Origin: a virus
Lineage: Duplodnaviria > Heunggongvirae > Uroviricota > Caudoviricetes
Reading direction: 5' to 3' (one strand)
Length of the DNA stretch: 41,019 nucleotides
IMG/VR virus record: IMGVR_UViG_2671180770_000025
Under the pieces are notes generated by a model. That model worked only from the letters and a program-made list of their open reading frames with translations. It had not been told where the DNA came from and did not search any database. Shown in pieces: positions 7,186-39,358 of the stretch. The number at the start of each line of letters is the position of its first letter. Positions within the stretch are counted from its first letter, which is position 1. The position numbers and the translations under genes were made by a program.

Positions 7186-8127
7186 ATGAGCACTAAATTA
7201 ACCGGCTATGTATGGGATGGTTGCGCTGCATCAGGCATGAAATTATCCAGCGTGGCAATTATGGCCCGCCTGGCTGATTTCAGTAATGACGAAGGTGTGT
7301 GCTGGCCATCAATTGAAACCATTGCCCGCCAGATTGGCGCGGGAATGAGTACCGTCAGAACGGCTATCGCACGGCTGGAAGCAGAAGGCTGGTTAACGCG
7401 TAAGGCGCGTCGCCAGGGTAACCGCAATGCGTCGAATGTTTATCAGCTTAACGTTGCGAAGCTTCAGGCAGCGGCATTTTCTCAACTGTCAGATTCTGAC
7501 CCGTCAAAATCTGACGCATCAAAATCTGACCCGTCAAAATTTGATGCGTCGAAATCTGGCAAAAAAGCGGGTTTTCACCCGTCAGAATCTGGCGGGGATC
7601 CGTCAGTAAAATCAAAACATGATCCGTCAGATAAAAAACCTTCTCGTCCGGACGCTTCGCAACCGGACACGCAGACGGATGAACAGGATTTTTTAACTCG
7701 CCATCCTGATGCGGTTGTATTCAGCCCTAAAAAGCGCCAGTGGGGAACGCAGGATGATTTGACCTGCGCACAGTGGCTCTGGAAAAAAATCATCGCCCTG
7801 TACGAGCAAGCCGCCGAATGTGACGGCGAGGTGGTTCGTCCCAAAGAACCGAACTGGACAGCCTGGGCAAACGAAATTCGCCTGATGTGTGTGCAGGATG
7901 GTCGTACTCACAAACAAATCTGCGAGATGTACAGCCGCGTCAGCCGCGATCCGTTCTGGTGCCGTAACGTGCTCAGCCCGTCGAAGTTGCGGGAAAAATG
8001 GGATGAGCTTTCCCTGCGCTTATCACCGTCCGTTAGCACGTACACCGAAAAACGCGAAGACCCGTACTTCAAATCCAGTTACGACAACGTGGACTACAGC
8101 CAGATCCCGGCAGGATTCAGGGGGTGA
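7186..8127 (+). CDS. Replication initiator (O-like): N-terminal winged-helix domain, C-terminal DnaT-like domain, ori iterons embedded
   Basis: N-terminal wHTH (SIETIARQIGAGMSTVRTAIARLEAEGWL); internal repeat peptide SDSDPSKSDASKSDPSKFDASKSG encoded by tandem DNA iterons; C-terminal W/KLREKWDEL region. Confidence 0.6.
   Translation: MSTKLTGYVWDGCAASGMKLSSVAIMARLADFSNDEGVCWPSIETIARQIGAGMSTVRTAIARLEAEGWLTRKARRQGNRNASNVYQLNVAKLQAAAFSQLSDSDPSKSDASKSDPSKFDASKSGKKAGFHPSESGGDPSVKSKHDPSDKKPSRPDASQPDTQTDEQDFLTRHPDAVVFSPKKRQWGTQDDLTCAQWLWKKIIALYEQAAECDGEVVRPKEPNWTAWANEIRLMCVQDGRTHKQICEMYSRVSRDPFWCRNVLSPSKLREKWDELSLRLSPSVSTYTEKREDPYFKSSYDNVDYSQIPAGFRG
7487..7640. repeat. Candidate origin of replication: five tandem 14-15-bp iterons, then degenerate copies and an A-rich tract
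   Basis: tgtcagattctgac / ccgtcaaaatctgac / gcatcaaaatctgac / ccgtcaaaatttgat / gcgtcgaaatctggc, then ccgtcagaatctgg, ccgtcagtaaaatc, ccgtcagataaaaaa. Confidence 0.6.
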
Positions 8128-12572: not shown

Positions 12573-12603
12573 ATGATTTTCGCCGAAGATGGCGACATGA
12601 TTC

Positions 12604-12632
12604 TTGCATTTTTCAAAAAATTTGGTTAGGAT
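12604..12632 (+). promoter_or_regulatory. Candidate late promoter PR' (Q action site expected here)
   Basis: -35 TTGCAT (12604..12609), 17-nt spacer, -10 TAGGAT (12627..12632), about 30 nt after the Q stop. Confidence 0.5.
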
Positions 12633-12678
12633 TCTCCTAACGATGGGCTTTGTGTGTCTACCGTTGATAATCTTCAAG

Positions 12679-12702
12679 AAACCGCCACCGAGCGGTTTTT
12701 TA
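12679..12702 (+). terminator. tR'-like intrinsic terminator about 40 nt after the PR' start
   Basis: aaaccgc-caccga-gcggttt followed by a T-run. Confidence 0.55.
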
Positions 12703-12860
12703 TTGATGTCAATTGTGTTTTTAAGGCTCTCCTTCCTTAAAGTGTGTTGTACAAAAAACTGGCAGCCAGCTACGCTCATTTTGAAAAAGTGACACCCTTC
12801 AATGTTTCTTTTGAATGGAATTGCTACCCATAAATCTCTATCAAAAACAGGAGAGCATAT

Positions 12861-13103
12861 ATGGTGGAGCGTTGTTCTGTTTGTGAGCAGTCATTAAGTT
12901 ATTCACGAGAAGTTGAACAAGATGGCGTTGAATATAAATCTTGCCCAAAATGTTCTGCTGATGCCGGAGTGCACGTTTTTTATAAAACAATAGACTTTGG
13001 TTATAGGGATATGGGAGACGGAAGGCATATCGTTCAGTCATGGTGTCCGGCTTGTCGTTCTGGTGAAAAACCTTCTATACCACCAGCATTTAAATGTTGT
13101 TAA
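12861..13103 (+). CDS. Hypothetical 80-aa Cys-rich (zinc-ribbon-like) protein, moron between Q and the holin
   Basis: SD CAGGAGAG 5 nt upstream; CxxC pairs (CSVCEQ, CPKCS, CPACRS); AT-rich; own terminator downstream. Confidence 0.5.
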   Translation: MVERCSVCEQSLSYSREVEQDGVEYKSCPKCSADAGVHVFYKTIDFGYRDMGDGRHIVQSWCPACRSGEKPSIPPAFKCC

Positions 13104-14432: not shown

Positions 14433-14574
14433 TACTCCTGTACCGTTTATACCTAATCCGCTGACGTATGGTGCCAGTCTGGAGCTGAATGTGAGTCTGA
14501 TGGGGGCGCTGGGAATGTGTAACAGGGATAAAGAAGATATTAGAACGATTGAGCAATCACGATCCTCGCAATAG
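14317..14574 (+). CDS. Rz1: o-spanin (Rz1-like lipoprotein), overlapped architecture
   Basis: Starts inside Rz in another frame; lipoprotein signal with lipobox LLTGC; proline-rich mature part; extends past the Rz stop. Confidence 0.6.
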   Translation: MMIVLHVLCLLPLLTGCGSTRTVYVSVPVAPLPPSLTSDTPVPFIPNPLTYGASLELNVSLMGALGMCNRDKEDIRTIEQSRSSQ

Positions 14575-14603
14575 TGGGGTTTTTTAACAACTGAGGAATG
14601 AGC

Positions 14604-14801
14604 ATGACAGTAGTTCTTACAGCAAAACAGATTGAAGACCTGTCAGCCTTCGCAAAAGAAGATGGCCAGCCCAAGTACACCATCACCACCGGGACAATCC
14701 CGAAATTCGAAGCAGAAGATGGCGAGATTATCCCTGAATACACAGGACTGATCGCCTACTCAGAGTCACTTGAGCGCGGTGTGTTGCAACTCGACGACTA
14801 G
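14604..14801 (+). CDS. Hypothetical 65-aa protein after the lysis cassette
   Basis: SD GAGGAA 7 nt upstream of ATG 14604. Confidence 0.4.
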   Translation: MTVVLTAKQIEDLSAFAKEDGQPKYTITTGTIPKFEAEDGEIIPEYTGLIAYSESLERGVLQLDD

Positions 14802-14869
14802 CGGCATTACAGCAGTCATTCACTGAGTGTATGAGATATAGCAAATTTGTATAGTATCGGAAGCGAGCA

Positions 14870-14905
14870 TTTGACATGGCTAACAATCTCAAAAGCCATG
14901 TCAAA
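14870..14905. promoter_or_regulatory. Perfect 11-bp inverted repeat with 14-nt loop between convergent genes (possible terminator or binding site)
   Basis: tttgacatggc ... gccatgtcaaa. Confidence 0.35.
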
Positions 14906-14912
14906 GCTAATC

Positions 14913-15263
14913 TTATTTATTGAAGATCTGAAATAGAAGGCTACATATCGTAGCAATATTTGCCCCATAAGATAGGTATTTTGTAAACCCTATTCTATCA
15001 AATACAGTTAGCTGCTCTTGTTCAGTAGTAGCTTTGCTACTTACCAGCTCTTCATATGCCTGCTTTAGTTGTTCCAGAGGCGTTTCAGCTCTAATTCCTG
15101 CTGCATGAAGAGCCTGGATATTATCTTTATAGTTGACTCCGTGTCCTTCATTTTCAGAGATATCAGTACCTATTATGACTAAATCTAAAGGATTACCGGC
15201 CTCGACTCTAATGCCATCACCGCCATTACCTTTAATACGGCCACCAATTAATGTTAATGTCAT
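14913..15263 (-). CDS. Hypothetical 116-aa protein, AT-rich moron on the minus strand
   Basis: SD AAGGAAAG 8 nt upstream of ATG 15263; GNGGDGIRVEAGNPLDLVIIGTDISENEGHGV looks beta-helix-repeat-like; no lipobox. Confidence 0.5.
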   Translation of the reverse strand: MTLTLIGGRIKGNGGDGIRVEAGNPLDLVIIGTDISENEGHGVNYKDNIQALHAAGIRAETPLEQLKQAYEELVSSKATTEQEQLTVFDRIGFTKYLSYGANIATICSLLFQIFNK

Positions 15264-15521
15264 TAATACTTTCCTTTATCAGATGAAAAATAAATTCTAT
15301 TTTATATCACTAGCCACGTAAAAATATAAAGAATATTTCCAGAATTGTTGTGGCTCACATTTTCTATAACTAAATACTATATCGCTGTCGTCTTTGAGTA
15401 AATGCTACTTAATCTGTCTACAAGCATTTTTATAGTCATCACAATGGGCGGATCCATCGTAATGGCTTAACATGAGCACTACTATGCTCCCTGCAAAAAA
15501 CACATAACAGAAGGGCGGACA

Positions 15522-15872
15522 ATGCCACCACGCACACCAAAGGCTTGCAGAGCAAGAGGCTGCCGCAACACGACAACCGATTCATCAGGCTACTGCGAGC
15601 TACACAAAAGCGAAGGCTGGAAGCAATACAAGCCAGGTCAGTCCCGTCATCAGCGCGGTTATGGTTCGAAGTGGGATGTTATCCGCGTGCGTGTGCTGAA
15701 GCGTGACAAAGGCCTGTGTCAGTTATGTCTGCGTGCTGGTGTGGTGCGTGAGGCGAAAACCGTTGACCACATCATCGCTAAAGCGCATGGCGGCACTGAT
15801 GCCGACTGCAATCTGCAGAGTTTGTGCTGGCCGTGTCATAAGGCGAAGACGGCCCGTGAACGGCTGAAGTAA
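15522..15872 (+). CDS. HNH endonuclease (packaging-associated)
   Basis: Cys-rich HNH core (CQLCLRAG ... VDHIIAKAHGG ... NLQSLCWPCHKAK); immediately upstream of terS. Confidence 0.8.
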   Translation: MPPRTPKACRARGCRNTTTDSSGYCELHKSEGWKQYKPGQSRHQRGYGSKWDVIRVRVLKRDKGLCQLCLRAGVVREAKTVDHIIAKAHGGTDADCNLQSLCWPCHKAKTARERLK

Positions 15873-19745: not shown

Positions 19746-20285
19746 GTGGTGATGTCCGGGGCATTTGCTGCTTCCCTGCGGGTGTGGAGTGACAGAAAAG
19801 CGTTACCTGCGCTGCTCTGGCAGCACCGCATGGATGAGCCCATCGGTGTTTACACCGAAATGAAGGAAGACGATGTCGGGCTTTACGTCAGGGGACGGTT
19901 GCTCATTGATGATGATCCCCTGGCAAAACGCGCACATGCACACATGAAGGCCGGTTCGTTAACCGGCCTTTCTATTGGGTACGTCCTGAAGGACTGGGAA
20001 TACGACCGGACGAAAGAAGCCTTTCTGCTGAAAGAAATCGACCTCTGGGAAGTCAGCCTGGTGACATTCCCGTCTAACGACGAGGCGCGGATCAGCGACG
20101 TCAAGAACGCACTGGCCCGCGGGGAAATCCCCGAACAGAAAAAAATCGAAAGAGTCCTGCGTGATGTCGGACTCTCCCGTACCCAGGCCAAAGCATTCAT
20201 GGCCGGGGGCTATGGCGCACTGTCCCTGCGCGATGCTGAGGATGTGGGCTCTGCACTGAATGCACTGAAAAATCTGAACTTCTAA
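19746..20285 (+). CDS. Prohead protease, HK97 family; true start probably upstream (frame open from 19650) at a non-canonical codon
   Basis: Position between portal and capsid; conserved-looking N-terminal motif GEFEGYGSVFGVKDSHDDVV is encoded in-frame upstream of the first GTG/ATG. Confidence 0.65.
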   Translation: MVMSGAFAASLRVWSDRKALPALLWQHRMDEPIGVYTEMKEDDVGLYVRGRLLIDDDPLAKRAHAHMKAGSLTGLSIGYVLKDWEYDRTKEAFLLKEIDLWEVSLVTFPSNDEARISDVKNALARGEIPEQKKIERVLRDVGLSRTQAKAFMAGGYGALSLRDAEDVGSALNALKNLNF

Positions 20286-21505: not shown

Positions 21506-21553
21506 TCACTCAGGGGCGCGGAACCGCGCCCCTGTTCTGACGGGTGAAGAATC

Positions 21554-38554: not shown

Positions 38555-39358
38555 ATGGGGTATGATTATAAAGAGCATATTAGCAATGCTAAGAGGCTCT
38601 ATGAAATTGGGGATAACGCTTCTTTAAGATACTGTGCATTGGAATTGAGATTTGCAATTGAGTGCCATGTATATATTCAATTAAGAGCAGGGCTAGGAAC
38701 AATTCCAGAGACGGTAATTAACACATGGCAACCACCTCAAGCAATAAAATCTTTATGCATGTTTGAGGAAACAGCAGATCAGGATTTAAAAGTAACTATA
38801 ACTTGTGATGACTCTAATGAGATAACAGCAAACTATAAAAATATTAAGTATAAGGACCTTAATAAATGGTATAATACCCTTGGGAGTTTTTTACATCAAC
38901 CAACCATAAAAAAGCAAGAATTTCAAGTAGATAAAGATAAACTAAATTCGATATTATCGAATTTAGCTGAACTGTGCGATCATCAGCTCATAACATTTCA
39001 TCGTGGTTATGAGAAAATAAAATGTGAAAAATGTAAAAAGGAAATTATTTTTACTAAAAATTACGTGAAAAAAAATAATAAAATAGATTGCCAAAATGCT
39101 GGTTGCCATAATTATGTTATTATTAGACTTGCCCCGGATGGTACATATGAATCACTCCAATCTGCTGTAGTAGCTTGCTTTATATGTGGTGAAAAAAACC
39201 ACATCTCATTATGCGACATGGAGGATGGAGCAGAGTTATATTGCAAGACGTGTAAAAATAAACATGTAATTAAAAAAGCTATTTTCTCCCAAGACAAAGT
39301 TGTTCCCATACCTGAATTTACTTTCGAAAACTCATTGTTGGTTGAGGACAAAGAGTAA
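38555..39358 (+). CDS. Hypothetical 267-aa protein: helical N-terminal region with R-x5-H motif, C-terminal double zinc-ribbon-like region
   Basis: Very AT-rich; ELRFAIECH fits Rx4-6H; CEKCKK...CQNAGCH and CFICGE...CKTCKNKH Cys clusters; no recognised family. Confidence 0.5.
   Translation: MGYDYKEHISNAKRLYEIGDNASLRYCALELRFAIECHVYIQLRAGLGTIPETVINTWQPPQAIKSLCMFEETADQDLKVTITCDDSNEITANYKNIKYKDLNKWYNTLGSFLHQPTIKKQEFQVDKDKLNSILSNLAELCDHQLITFHRGYEKIKCEKCKKEIIFTKNYVKKNNKIDCQNAGCHNYVIIRLAPDGTYESLQSAVVACFICGEKNHISLCDMEDGAELYCKTCKNKHVIKKAIFSQDKVVPIPEFTFENSLLVEDKE

Follow-up and report, generated by a model that had tools for sequence, protein, structure and literature searches.

The stretch of DNA analysed here, 41,019 nucleotides in length and referred to below as the window, is a nearly complete lambdoid E. 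coli prophage with an HK97-type head. The gene order runs from the integrase end through the early genes, a Q-type antiterminator and the lysis genes to a 67-aa ORF, followed by the moron that is the subject of this analysis and by the packaging and head genes. The coordinates of the features in the lysis-to-packaging region are summarized in Table 1.

The original prediction had pointed to a 116-aa ORF on the minus strand, preceded by a strong Shine-Dalgarno sequence and running against the late operon. This ORF is the sole long one within positions 14802-15521, the Shine-Dalgarno sequence was found in front of its ATG (Table 1), and the antisense orientation is borne out by the gene map. The Shine-Dalgarno sequence is invariant in an alignment with Citrobacter-type loci, and the start and stop codons of the gene are conserved in the comparison with related loci. 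An identical ORF is annotated as a hypothetical protein by RefSeq in three E. coli chromosomes. The GC content is 0.36-0.40 over the ORF and 0.32-0.345 over the 258-bp region upstream of it, which had also been recognized previously as an AT-rich region on the other side of the gene, compared with 0.46-0.60 in the flanks. A similar deviation was observed in all of the 12 family copies measured (GC 0.33-0.43, with flanks of 0.43-0.58). The description of the gene as an AT-rich moron thus agrees with its composition, its orientation, its own Shine-Dalgarno sequence, the hairpin next to it, its patchy presence and the varied phage backgrounds in which it occurs, and this reading is supported by these computable criteria.

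Two features of the neighbouring lysis region were observed in addition. A terminator-like hairpin (CCTCGCAATAGTGGGG), followed by TTTTTT, straddles the stop codon of Rz1/LysC (window 14564-14579, +), and in phi80 a "putative rightward terminator" is annotated after Rz, at the place matching this hairpin. A polymerase modified by Q would presumably not stop there. A second AT-rich stretch (GC 0.37-0.39) is found at window positions 12600-13100, from the Q-type antiterminator to the holin, and contains an 80-aa ORF with CxxC pairs (12861-13103, +) listed as hypothetical by RefSeq. This stretch may be another cargo slot.

Table 1. Features of the lysis-to-packaging region, in coordinates of the window
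Feature	Position	Strand	Remarks
Holin	start 13226		lysis cassette
GH24 lysozyme	start 13580		lysis cassette
Rz	start 14040		lysis cassette
Rz1/LysC	end 14574		lysis cassette
67-aa late-operon ORF	14598..14801	+	phrog_9518, N15 gp56-like; convergent with the moron
Junction sequence, GCATTACAGCAGTCATTCACTGAGTG-like	14804..14830		~27 bp; marks the cassette boundary at the 3' end of the moron (left side)
Perfect inverted repeat	14870..14905		12-bp arms, 12-nt loop; 8 nt past the stop codon of the moron
Moron gene	14913..15263	-	116 aa, ATG start; from ORF call, family and dN/dS
AT-rich divergent intergenic region	15264..15521		258 bp; separates the starts of the moron and the HNH endonuclease
Shine-Dalgarno sequence AAGGA	15272..15276	-	read from the sequence; 8 nt before the ATG
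Sigma-70-like promoter candidate, TTTACG-17-TAGAAT	15294..15322	-	9/12 consensus matches
HNH endonuclease	15522..15872	+	first gene of the packaging module
P27-type TerS	start 15989		downstream of the HNH endonuclease
TerL	start 16489		followed by HK97-type portal, protease and capsid

A family of small two-domain proteins

The moron encodes a protein of ~13 kDa. Searched alone, this protein had no match in Pfam (E<=1), NCBIfam or PADLOC. A search of Rfam found nothing, either at the gathering or at the E-value thresholds. In PHROGs the protein matched only phrog_36866 (function unassigned; E 5e-4), a group matched by 6 of 21 family members. In order to identify relatives, an exhaustive profile search was carried out over 1.84 billion representative proteins. 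In total, 23 matches were obtained, about 18 of them proteins of 112-154 aa that align end to end with the query; the remaining matches are large proteins with similarity only via generic beta-helix or other repeats. The family consists of ~18 clusters at 50% identity, all of 112-154 aa, from Enterobacterales prophages, with hosts including E. coli, Citrobacter, Enterobacter, Klebsiella, Kosakonia, Atlantibacter and Sodalis. Its members are named in the databases either "hypothetical protein" or "right-handed parallel beta-helix repeat-containing protein", and their length stays at 112-117 aa down to 26% identity.

The family was not found among 50,697 sequenced phage records (tblastn), and a pattern scan of one-genome-per-species GTDB contigs gave no confirmed family locus, showing that the family is rare. 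IMG/VR holds two near-identical loci only. A remote relative is encoded by a 113-aa antisense gene located in the same slot in E. coli CE0021a (WP_023277410.1, L041:852-1193, -) and present in 2 of 5,426 E. coli genomes. The match of this protein to the family profile (hhalign 94.7%, 18% identity) indicates that the family is broader than HMM searches reveal.

An AlphaFold2 model built from a 21-sequence alignment (pLDDT 86 overall) predicts strands in residues 2-47 and five helices in residues 48-114. Residues 1-47 appear as about two right-handed beta-helix (PbH1-like) rungs, and residues 48-116 as a conserved five-helix domain with no recognised fold and with a hydrophobic last helix (GANIATICSLLFQIF). 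The number of rungs ranges from two to four within the family, the short members having two and the members of 139-154 aa three or four. In the family alignment, the beta-helix is followed by the conserved motif L..AG...TP.E.L..A..EL, and the C-terminus carries the motif L+.IGF.+W/Y...GANLATIASLI.QIF. The beta-helix-repeat-like segment proposed from the window sequence holds at the family level: PF13229 (Beta_helix) is matched by 16 of the 21 members, with a best E-value of 5.4e-8 and the window protein alone below threshold, and the family profile matches the PbH1 repeats of the AlgE mannuronan epimerases (E 6.6e-7). A search for structural neighbours of the moron protein found no significant one.

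Comparisons of codon substitutions (Nei-Gojobori) gave dN/dS values of 0.11-0.39, including 0.11 between the window gene and the 90%-identical P0002 gene and 0.38 between the window gene and the 81%-identical P0004 gene. The moron is a real gene under purifying selection. The two domains differ, with dN/dS values of 0.06-0.20 in the helical C-terminal domain and of 0.27-0.78 in the beta-helix N-terminal domain. The fast N-terminal domain beside a constrained C-terminal domain would be the pattern expected of a recognition module engaged in an arms race, as judged from small counts.

These values also bear on the idea, raised as a possible outcome of a family search, that the ORF is a fragment of a depolymerase or tailspike-like protein. 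The resemblance of its N-terminus to the PbH1 repeats of beta-helix enzymes and tailspikes would be explained if the ORF were a dead remnant of such a gene that has stayed open by chance. What was found instead is a full-length, length-conserved family under purifying selection. Since dN/dS is well below 1 and the start, the Shine-Dalgarno sequence and the stop are conserved, the decayed-fragment reading is rejected; start, stop and length are maintained between family proteins that are 26-43% identical, the conserved C-terminal domain is absent from tailspikes, and no flanking pseudogene pieces were seen at the locus, so that we regard a remnant as extremely improbable. An intact tailspike or depolymerase was likewise rejected as the identity of the protein, which has 116 aa with strands only in residues 2-47 and a C-terminal domain that is absent from the longer homologues. 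AlgE epimerases, pectate lyases and tailspikes have at least seven rungs, compared with about two in the moron protein and up to four in its relatives. Unlike beta-helix enzymes and tailspikes, the moron protein is without a catalytic groove and without a virion-attachment or trimerisation domain; it combines the beta-helix with a unique helical domain and is predicted to be cytoplasmic.

The C-terminal helix was considered as a transmembrane anchor and rejected, based on Kyte-Doolittle values (19-residue window) of 0.5-1.6 in 20 of 21 members and a helix length of ~12-15 residues. This helix is hydrophobic with a narrow polar face and lies below the transmembrane thresholds in nearly all members, and peripheral membrane binding through it is possible. 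The motif AGIRAETPLEQLKQAYEELV in residues 55-76 (window 15036-15101, -) locally resembles the J-domain helix I-II signature LGV..AS.EEIKKAYRKLA, and the segment "AGI..ETP.EQLKQAYEEL" gave recurrent weak PDB matches to J-domain helices I-II. An identity as a J-domain (DnaJ) protein was rejected, as the HPD motif that the four-helix J fold carries between helices II and III is lacking and hhalign gave 4.9%. The family defined here is an uncharacterised and rapidly diversifying one, in which a mini beta-helix is combined with a helical domain without a recognised fold.

The palindrome and the upstream region

A perfect 11-bp palindrome had been reported between the moron and the convergent gene. 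Its location between the two stops (at 14801 and 14913), its coordinates and its perfection are confirmed, but the arms, TTTGACATGGCT at 14870-14881 and AGCCATGTCAAA at 14894-14905, are 12 bp long. It is the sole perfect inverted repeat in the window with arms of at least 12 bp and a loop of at most 20 nt, and with 0.07 such repeats per window in block-shuffled controls it lies far beyond chance. Folded in isolation, the hairpin reaches about -16 kcal/mol, whichever strand is taken. On both strands the palindrome is flanked by U's on the 5' side and by A's on the 3' side; as neither strand has a U-tract, it is not a canonical intrinsic terminator. It was also rejected as a promoter: TTGACA occurs in the arms, but AGCCAT stands where the -10 element would be.

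A 10-bp core of the stem (TTTGACATGG/CCATGTCAAA) is invariant in three lineages, and the loop and the two top stem pairs vary. Among these three lineages no compensatory changes were found in the stem, and covariation can therefore not separate RNA pairing from protein binding. Three distant homologues have strong hairpins at the same place after the stop codon that are non-homologous to the palindrome, making four lineages together with the window; the hairpin of L015 resembles a canonical terminator when read along the convergent late genes, and in that direction only. That unrelated hairpins recur at this place speaks for a generic role at the 3' end or boundary, either termination-associated or mRNA-stabilising, rather than for a specific operator, and the palindrome is likely the 3'-end hairpin of the moron transcript. 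The perfect 12-bp arms and the invariant core with a variable loop would also suit an operator for a dimeric regulator, for instance one controlling convergent transcription at the cassette boundary, and no compensatory changes argue specifically for RNA pairing. A half-site-like sequence (TTTTACGTGGCT) furthermore overlaps the candidate -35 element of the moron. However, half-sites occur in the window at the frequency expected by chance (5 observed, 4.7 expected), the helical domain of the moron protein is not basic, its matches to helix-turn-helix-like folds are insignificant, and the unrelated hairpins of the distant members speak for a structural role at the 3' end rather than for an operator, which we consider unlikely.

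Shorter perfect repeats were observed elsewhere in the window. These include an inverted repeat with 11-bp arms (GACGCATCAAA/TTTGATGCGTC) in the early region (7513-7550), an AT-rich 11-bp palindrome near the right end (38942-38966), and, among the head genes, two GC-rich hairpins with 10-bp arms and loops of 4 nt (19947-19970 and 21511-21534).

The AT-rich region upstream of the moron contains a sigma-70-like promoter candidate on the moron strand (15322-15294), which is overlapped by an extended -10-like sequence (TGATATAAA). Sites matching the consensus as well as this candidate (9/12) are no more frequent than in shuffled sequence. The region around it is ~85% conserved in 90%-identical homologues and the hexamers themselves vary; promoter scans at the three distant homologues gave matches at chance level. 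AT-rich acquired DNA is often silenced by H-NS in E. coli, which, like the chance-level promoter match, counts against the reading preferred below.

Boundaries and distribution of the cassette

The boundaries of the cassette are sharp and enclose ~650 bp, roughly positions 14837-15480. On the left side, the junction sequence is common to phage mEp390 and to moron loci with unrelated left neighbours. Phage mEp390 has the left neighbour and the junction without a moron, and homology to it stops at about 14836. Judged from these alignments, the junction looks like a module-boundary sequence where cargo is exchanged. On the right side, homology with the Citrobacter-type cassette reaches about 15470. 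Relative to cassettes of this type, a 39-nt insertion (~15480-15520) is found in the window lineage only, directly upstream of the HNH start.

The exact cassette is present in 3 of 5,426 complete E. coli genomes. These three represent two phage backgrounds, which differ in the replication/nin regions, Q, holin and portal, and 1,221 E. coli genomes have other cargo between similar Rz/HNH/TerS flanks. In nine of the ten subfamilies examined, the moron stands alone and antisense, with the lysis cassette on one side and the packaging genes on the other, and in these nine the slot is conserved with both lambda gpA-type and HK97/P27-type terminases. The tenth subfamily (154 aa, Klebsiella aerogenes) has its gene in another prophage, also antisense but located in the early region. 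Family members fill the slot in prophages of the hosts named above. A comparison of all neighbours across the family identified no conserved partner gene, and the convergent 67-aa ORF of the window is no such partner.

Based on these observations, a real and mobile moron cassette is very probable. It would be a self-contained unit that has entered the Q-dependent late operon in antisense orientation, with the lysis genes on one side and the HNH/terminase genes on the other. HK97 gp15 is an inner-membrane superinfection-exclusion protein. It differs from the window moron in slot, orientation and protein family, and also in its membrane location, as the moron protein is without a clear transmembrane segment. 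Classical morons, following the Juhala/Hendrix definition and the account of HK97 gp15 by Cumby et al. (2012), both as cited in passages of PMC11364771 and PMC3594210, resemble the window cassette in being extra genes of deviant composition found in some related phages, inside the late operon, and in having a hairpin on one side and, on the other, a promoter-like sequence, which in the window is a match at chance level.

Candidate role of the moron

The original prediction had compared the position of the moron to the slot where lambda carries bor. In NC_001416, bor is the minus-strand gene that immediately follows Rz, and the comparison is correct as a likeness in position only: both genes occupy the slot after Rz/Rz1, run antisense to the late operon and are similarly small. 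Bor is a secreted lipoprotein with a lipobox that confers serum resistance, whereas the moron protein has neither signal peptide nor lipobox. Sequence inspection found no signal-peptide-like stretch at its N-terminus and no Cys among its first 100 residues, in agreement with the lack of a lipobox noted previously, and a relationship to the Bor family was not detected at E<=1 in Pfam, in which that family is included. The lack of a signal peptide, a lipobox and a clear transmembrane segment indicates that the moron protein is not a surface protein like Bor or Lom.

The same lack speaks against the moron being a lysogenic-conversion gene that improves host fitness, through stress tolerance, envelope/polysaccharide metabolism or chaperone interaction, without any role in phage defence. 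Slot and strand are as for lambda bor, and such a gene would, like bor, be expressed in the lysogen and would show the same moron signatures; carbohydrate binding is, moreover, common among beta-helix modules, and PADLOC gave no link to known defence families. Two rungs are, however, too few for a catalytic groove, and the raised dN/dS of the N-terminal domain fits an arms race better than a housekeeping host interaction, which makes a conversion gene of this kind improbable. A conserved gene in a slot known for prophage defence genes is, on the other side, a reasonable defence-gene candidate.

A defence gene in this position is described for phi80. In the passages of He et al. (2024; PMC11364771) that deal with this locus, taiEcA (orf63) is placed antisense in the Q operon, upstream of the packaging module, and its product is made in the lysogen. 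The level of TaiEcA falls upon Q expression, atiEcA, a late gene next to it, neutralises the protein, and the authors speak of a "noncontiguous operon" (PMC11364771). According to the same passages, Tai is a tail-assembly-inhibition defence with a locus described as a moron, its members are 22-43% identical, and Ati is found beside only five Tai versions (PMC11364771). Like taiEcA, the window moron is a single antisense gene in a Q-dependent late operon, located after the lysis genes and before the packaging genes, and rapid diversification is common to the two families. TaiEcA has 204 aa and is all-helical in appearance, whereas the moron protein has 116 aa and a beta-helix. Membership of the Tai family was rejected, as hhalign of the family profile against phi80 orf63 gave a probability of 0.1%, and an identity of the convergent 67-aa ORF with Ati was rejected because it has no similarity to AtiEcA. 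The shared slot, orientation, single-gene nature and diversification thus make the moron plausibly a Tai-type, lysogen-expressed moron, placed outside the Tai family by the lack of homology.

The composite reading that we prefer, at a confidence falling slightly short of even, is that of a moron expressed in the lysogen, with a product that protects against other phages. Transcription in the lysogen would start from the moron's own AT-rich upstream region, and the mRNA would end at, or be stabilised by, the 12-bp hairpin. The product would be a cytoplasmic two-domain protein, in which the fast-evolving N-terminal beta-helix is the likely protein-recognition surface, and the conserved C-terminal helical domain likely serves as an effector, in oligomerisation or in association with the membrane. 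The two-domain protein would protect the lysogen against other phages through its binding to a protein of the phage or the host. Upon induction, Q-antiterminated late transcription would cross the cassette in antisense orientation and turn the moron down, following the logic of the "noncontiguous operon" demonstrated for taiEcA in phi80. Lysogen transcription, the anti-phage role and binding by the beta-helix are all what we infer here. Expression in the lysogen opposed by late antisense transcription seems about evenly balanced between being right and being wrong, and protection against phages by a beta-helix that binds proteins is conceivable but doubtful.

A more specific form of the preferred reading, which appears rather unlikely, is that of a new single-gene prophage immunity protein. 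The target recognised by its mini beta-helix, or its partner in co-assembly, would be a structural protein of a superinfecting phage, for instance a tail fibre or spike that is itself beta-helical; alternatively, a different conserved protein of the phage would be recognised. The C-terminal domain would then execute exclusion or poison the assembly. Self-immunity would come from transcriptional interference, owing to the antisense placement of the gene in the late operon. If true, a second and unrelated protein family would have converged on the strategy and the slot of Tai.

Transcriptional orientation is also what tells against a role in counter-defence, in which the moron would be an early accessory gene, expressed on infection from a promoter of its own and inhibiting host immunity as an acidic beta-helix decoy or mimic. 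The protein is small, mildly acidic (net charge -4), fast-evolving and encoded by a single gene, and in L037 an Acb2/Tad1-hairpin gene (anti-CBASS/Thoeris-like; L037:1184-1426) is found in the same slot, between the lysis genes and the moron. However, the moron is antisense to every neighbouring lytic operon, and late transcription would thus run against it at the very time when a lytic function is called for. The anti-defence genes known from the slot are sense-oriented (AtiEcA), and DNA mimics have a very different net charge. Counter-defence appears quite unlikely.

The moron is a short and easily clonable candidate for a new prophage-encoded protective function, and a second test case for the switch-off of a lysogen gene in lytic growth by a "noncontiguous operon". 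If it is an ordinary conversion gene or silent, the finding remains a routine moron annotation. Between the lysis and packaging genes of lambdoid prophages, a hotspot for cargo is emerging that contains, among others, bor, Tai/Ati and Acb2-like genes. As sense-strand and anti-defence-like genes are also found in it, position alone is no proof of a defence role.

Other cargo was observed at this slot and in related prophages. Among the matches listed, the commonest alternative content of the slot is an antisense gene pair encoding proteins of 189 and 111 aa (L040:597-1602, -), and a sense DUF2513 gene (L039:868-1269, +) was found as well; PADLOC gave no match for either the pair or the DUF2513 gene. 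A 657-aa ATPase with SMC_N/AAA_15/AAA_21 domains is encoded antisense between Q and the holin in L019 (L019:10205-12178, +), and a homologous prophage carries a RloB and AAA_21 pair (L032:13055-14354).
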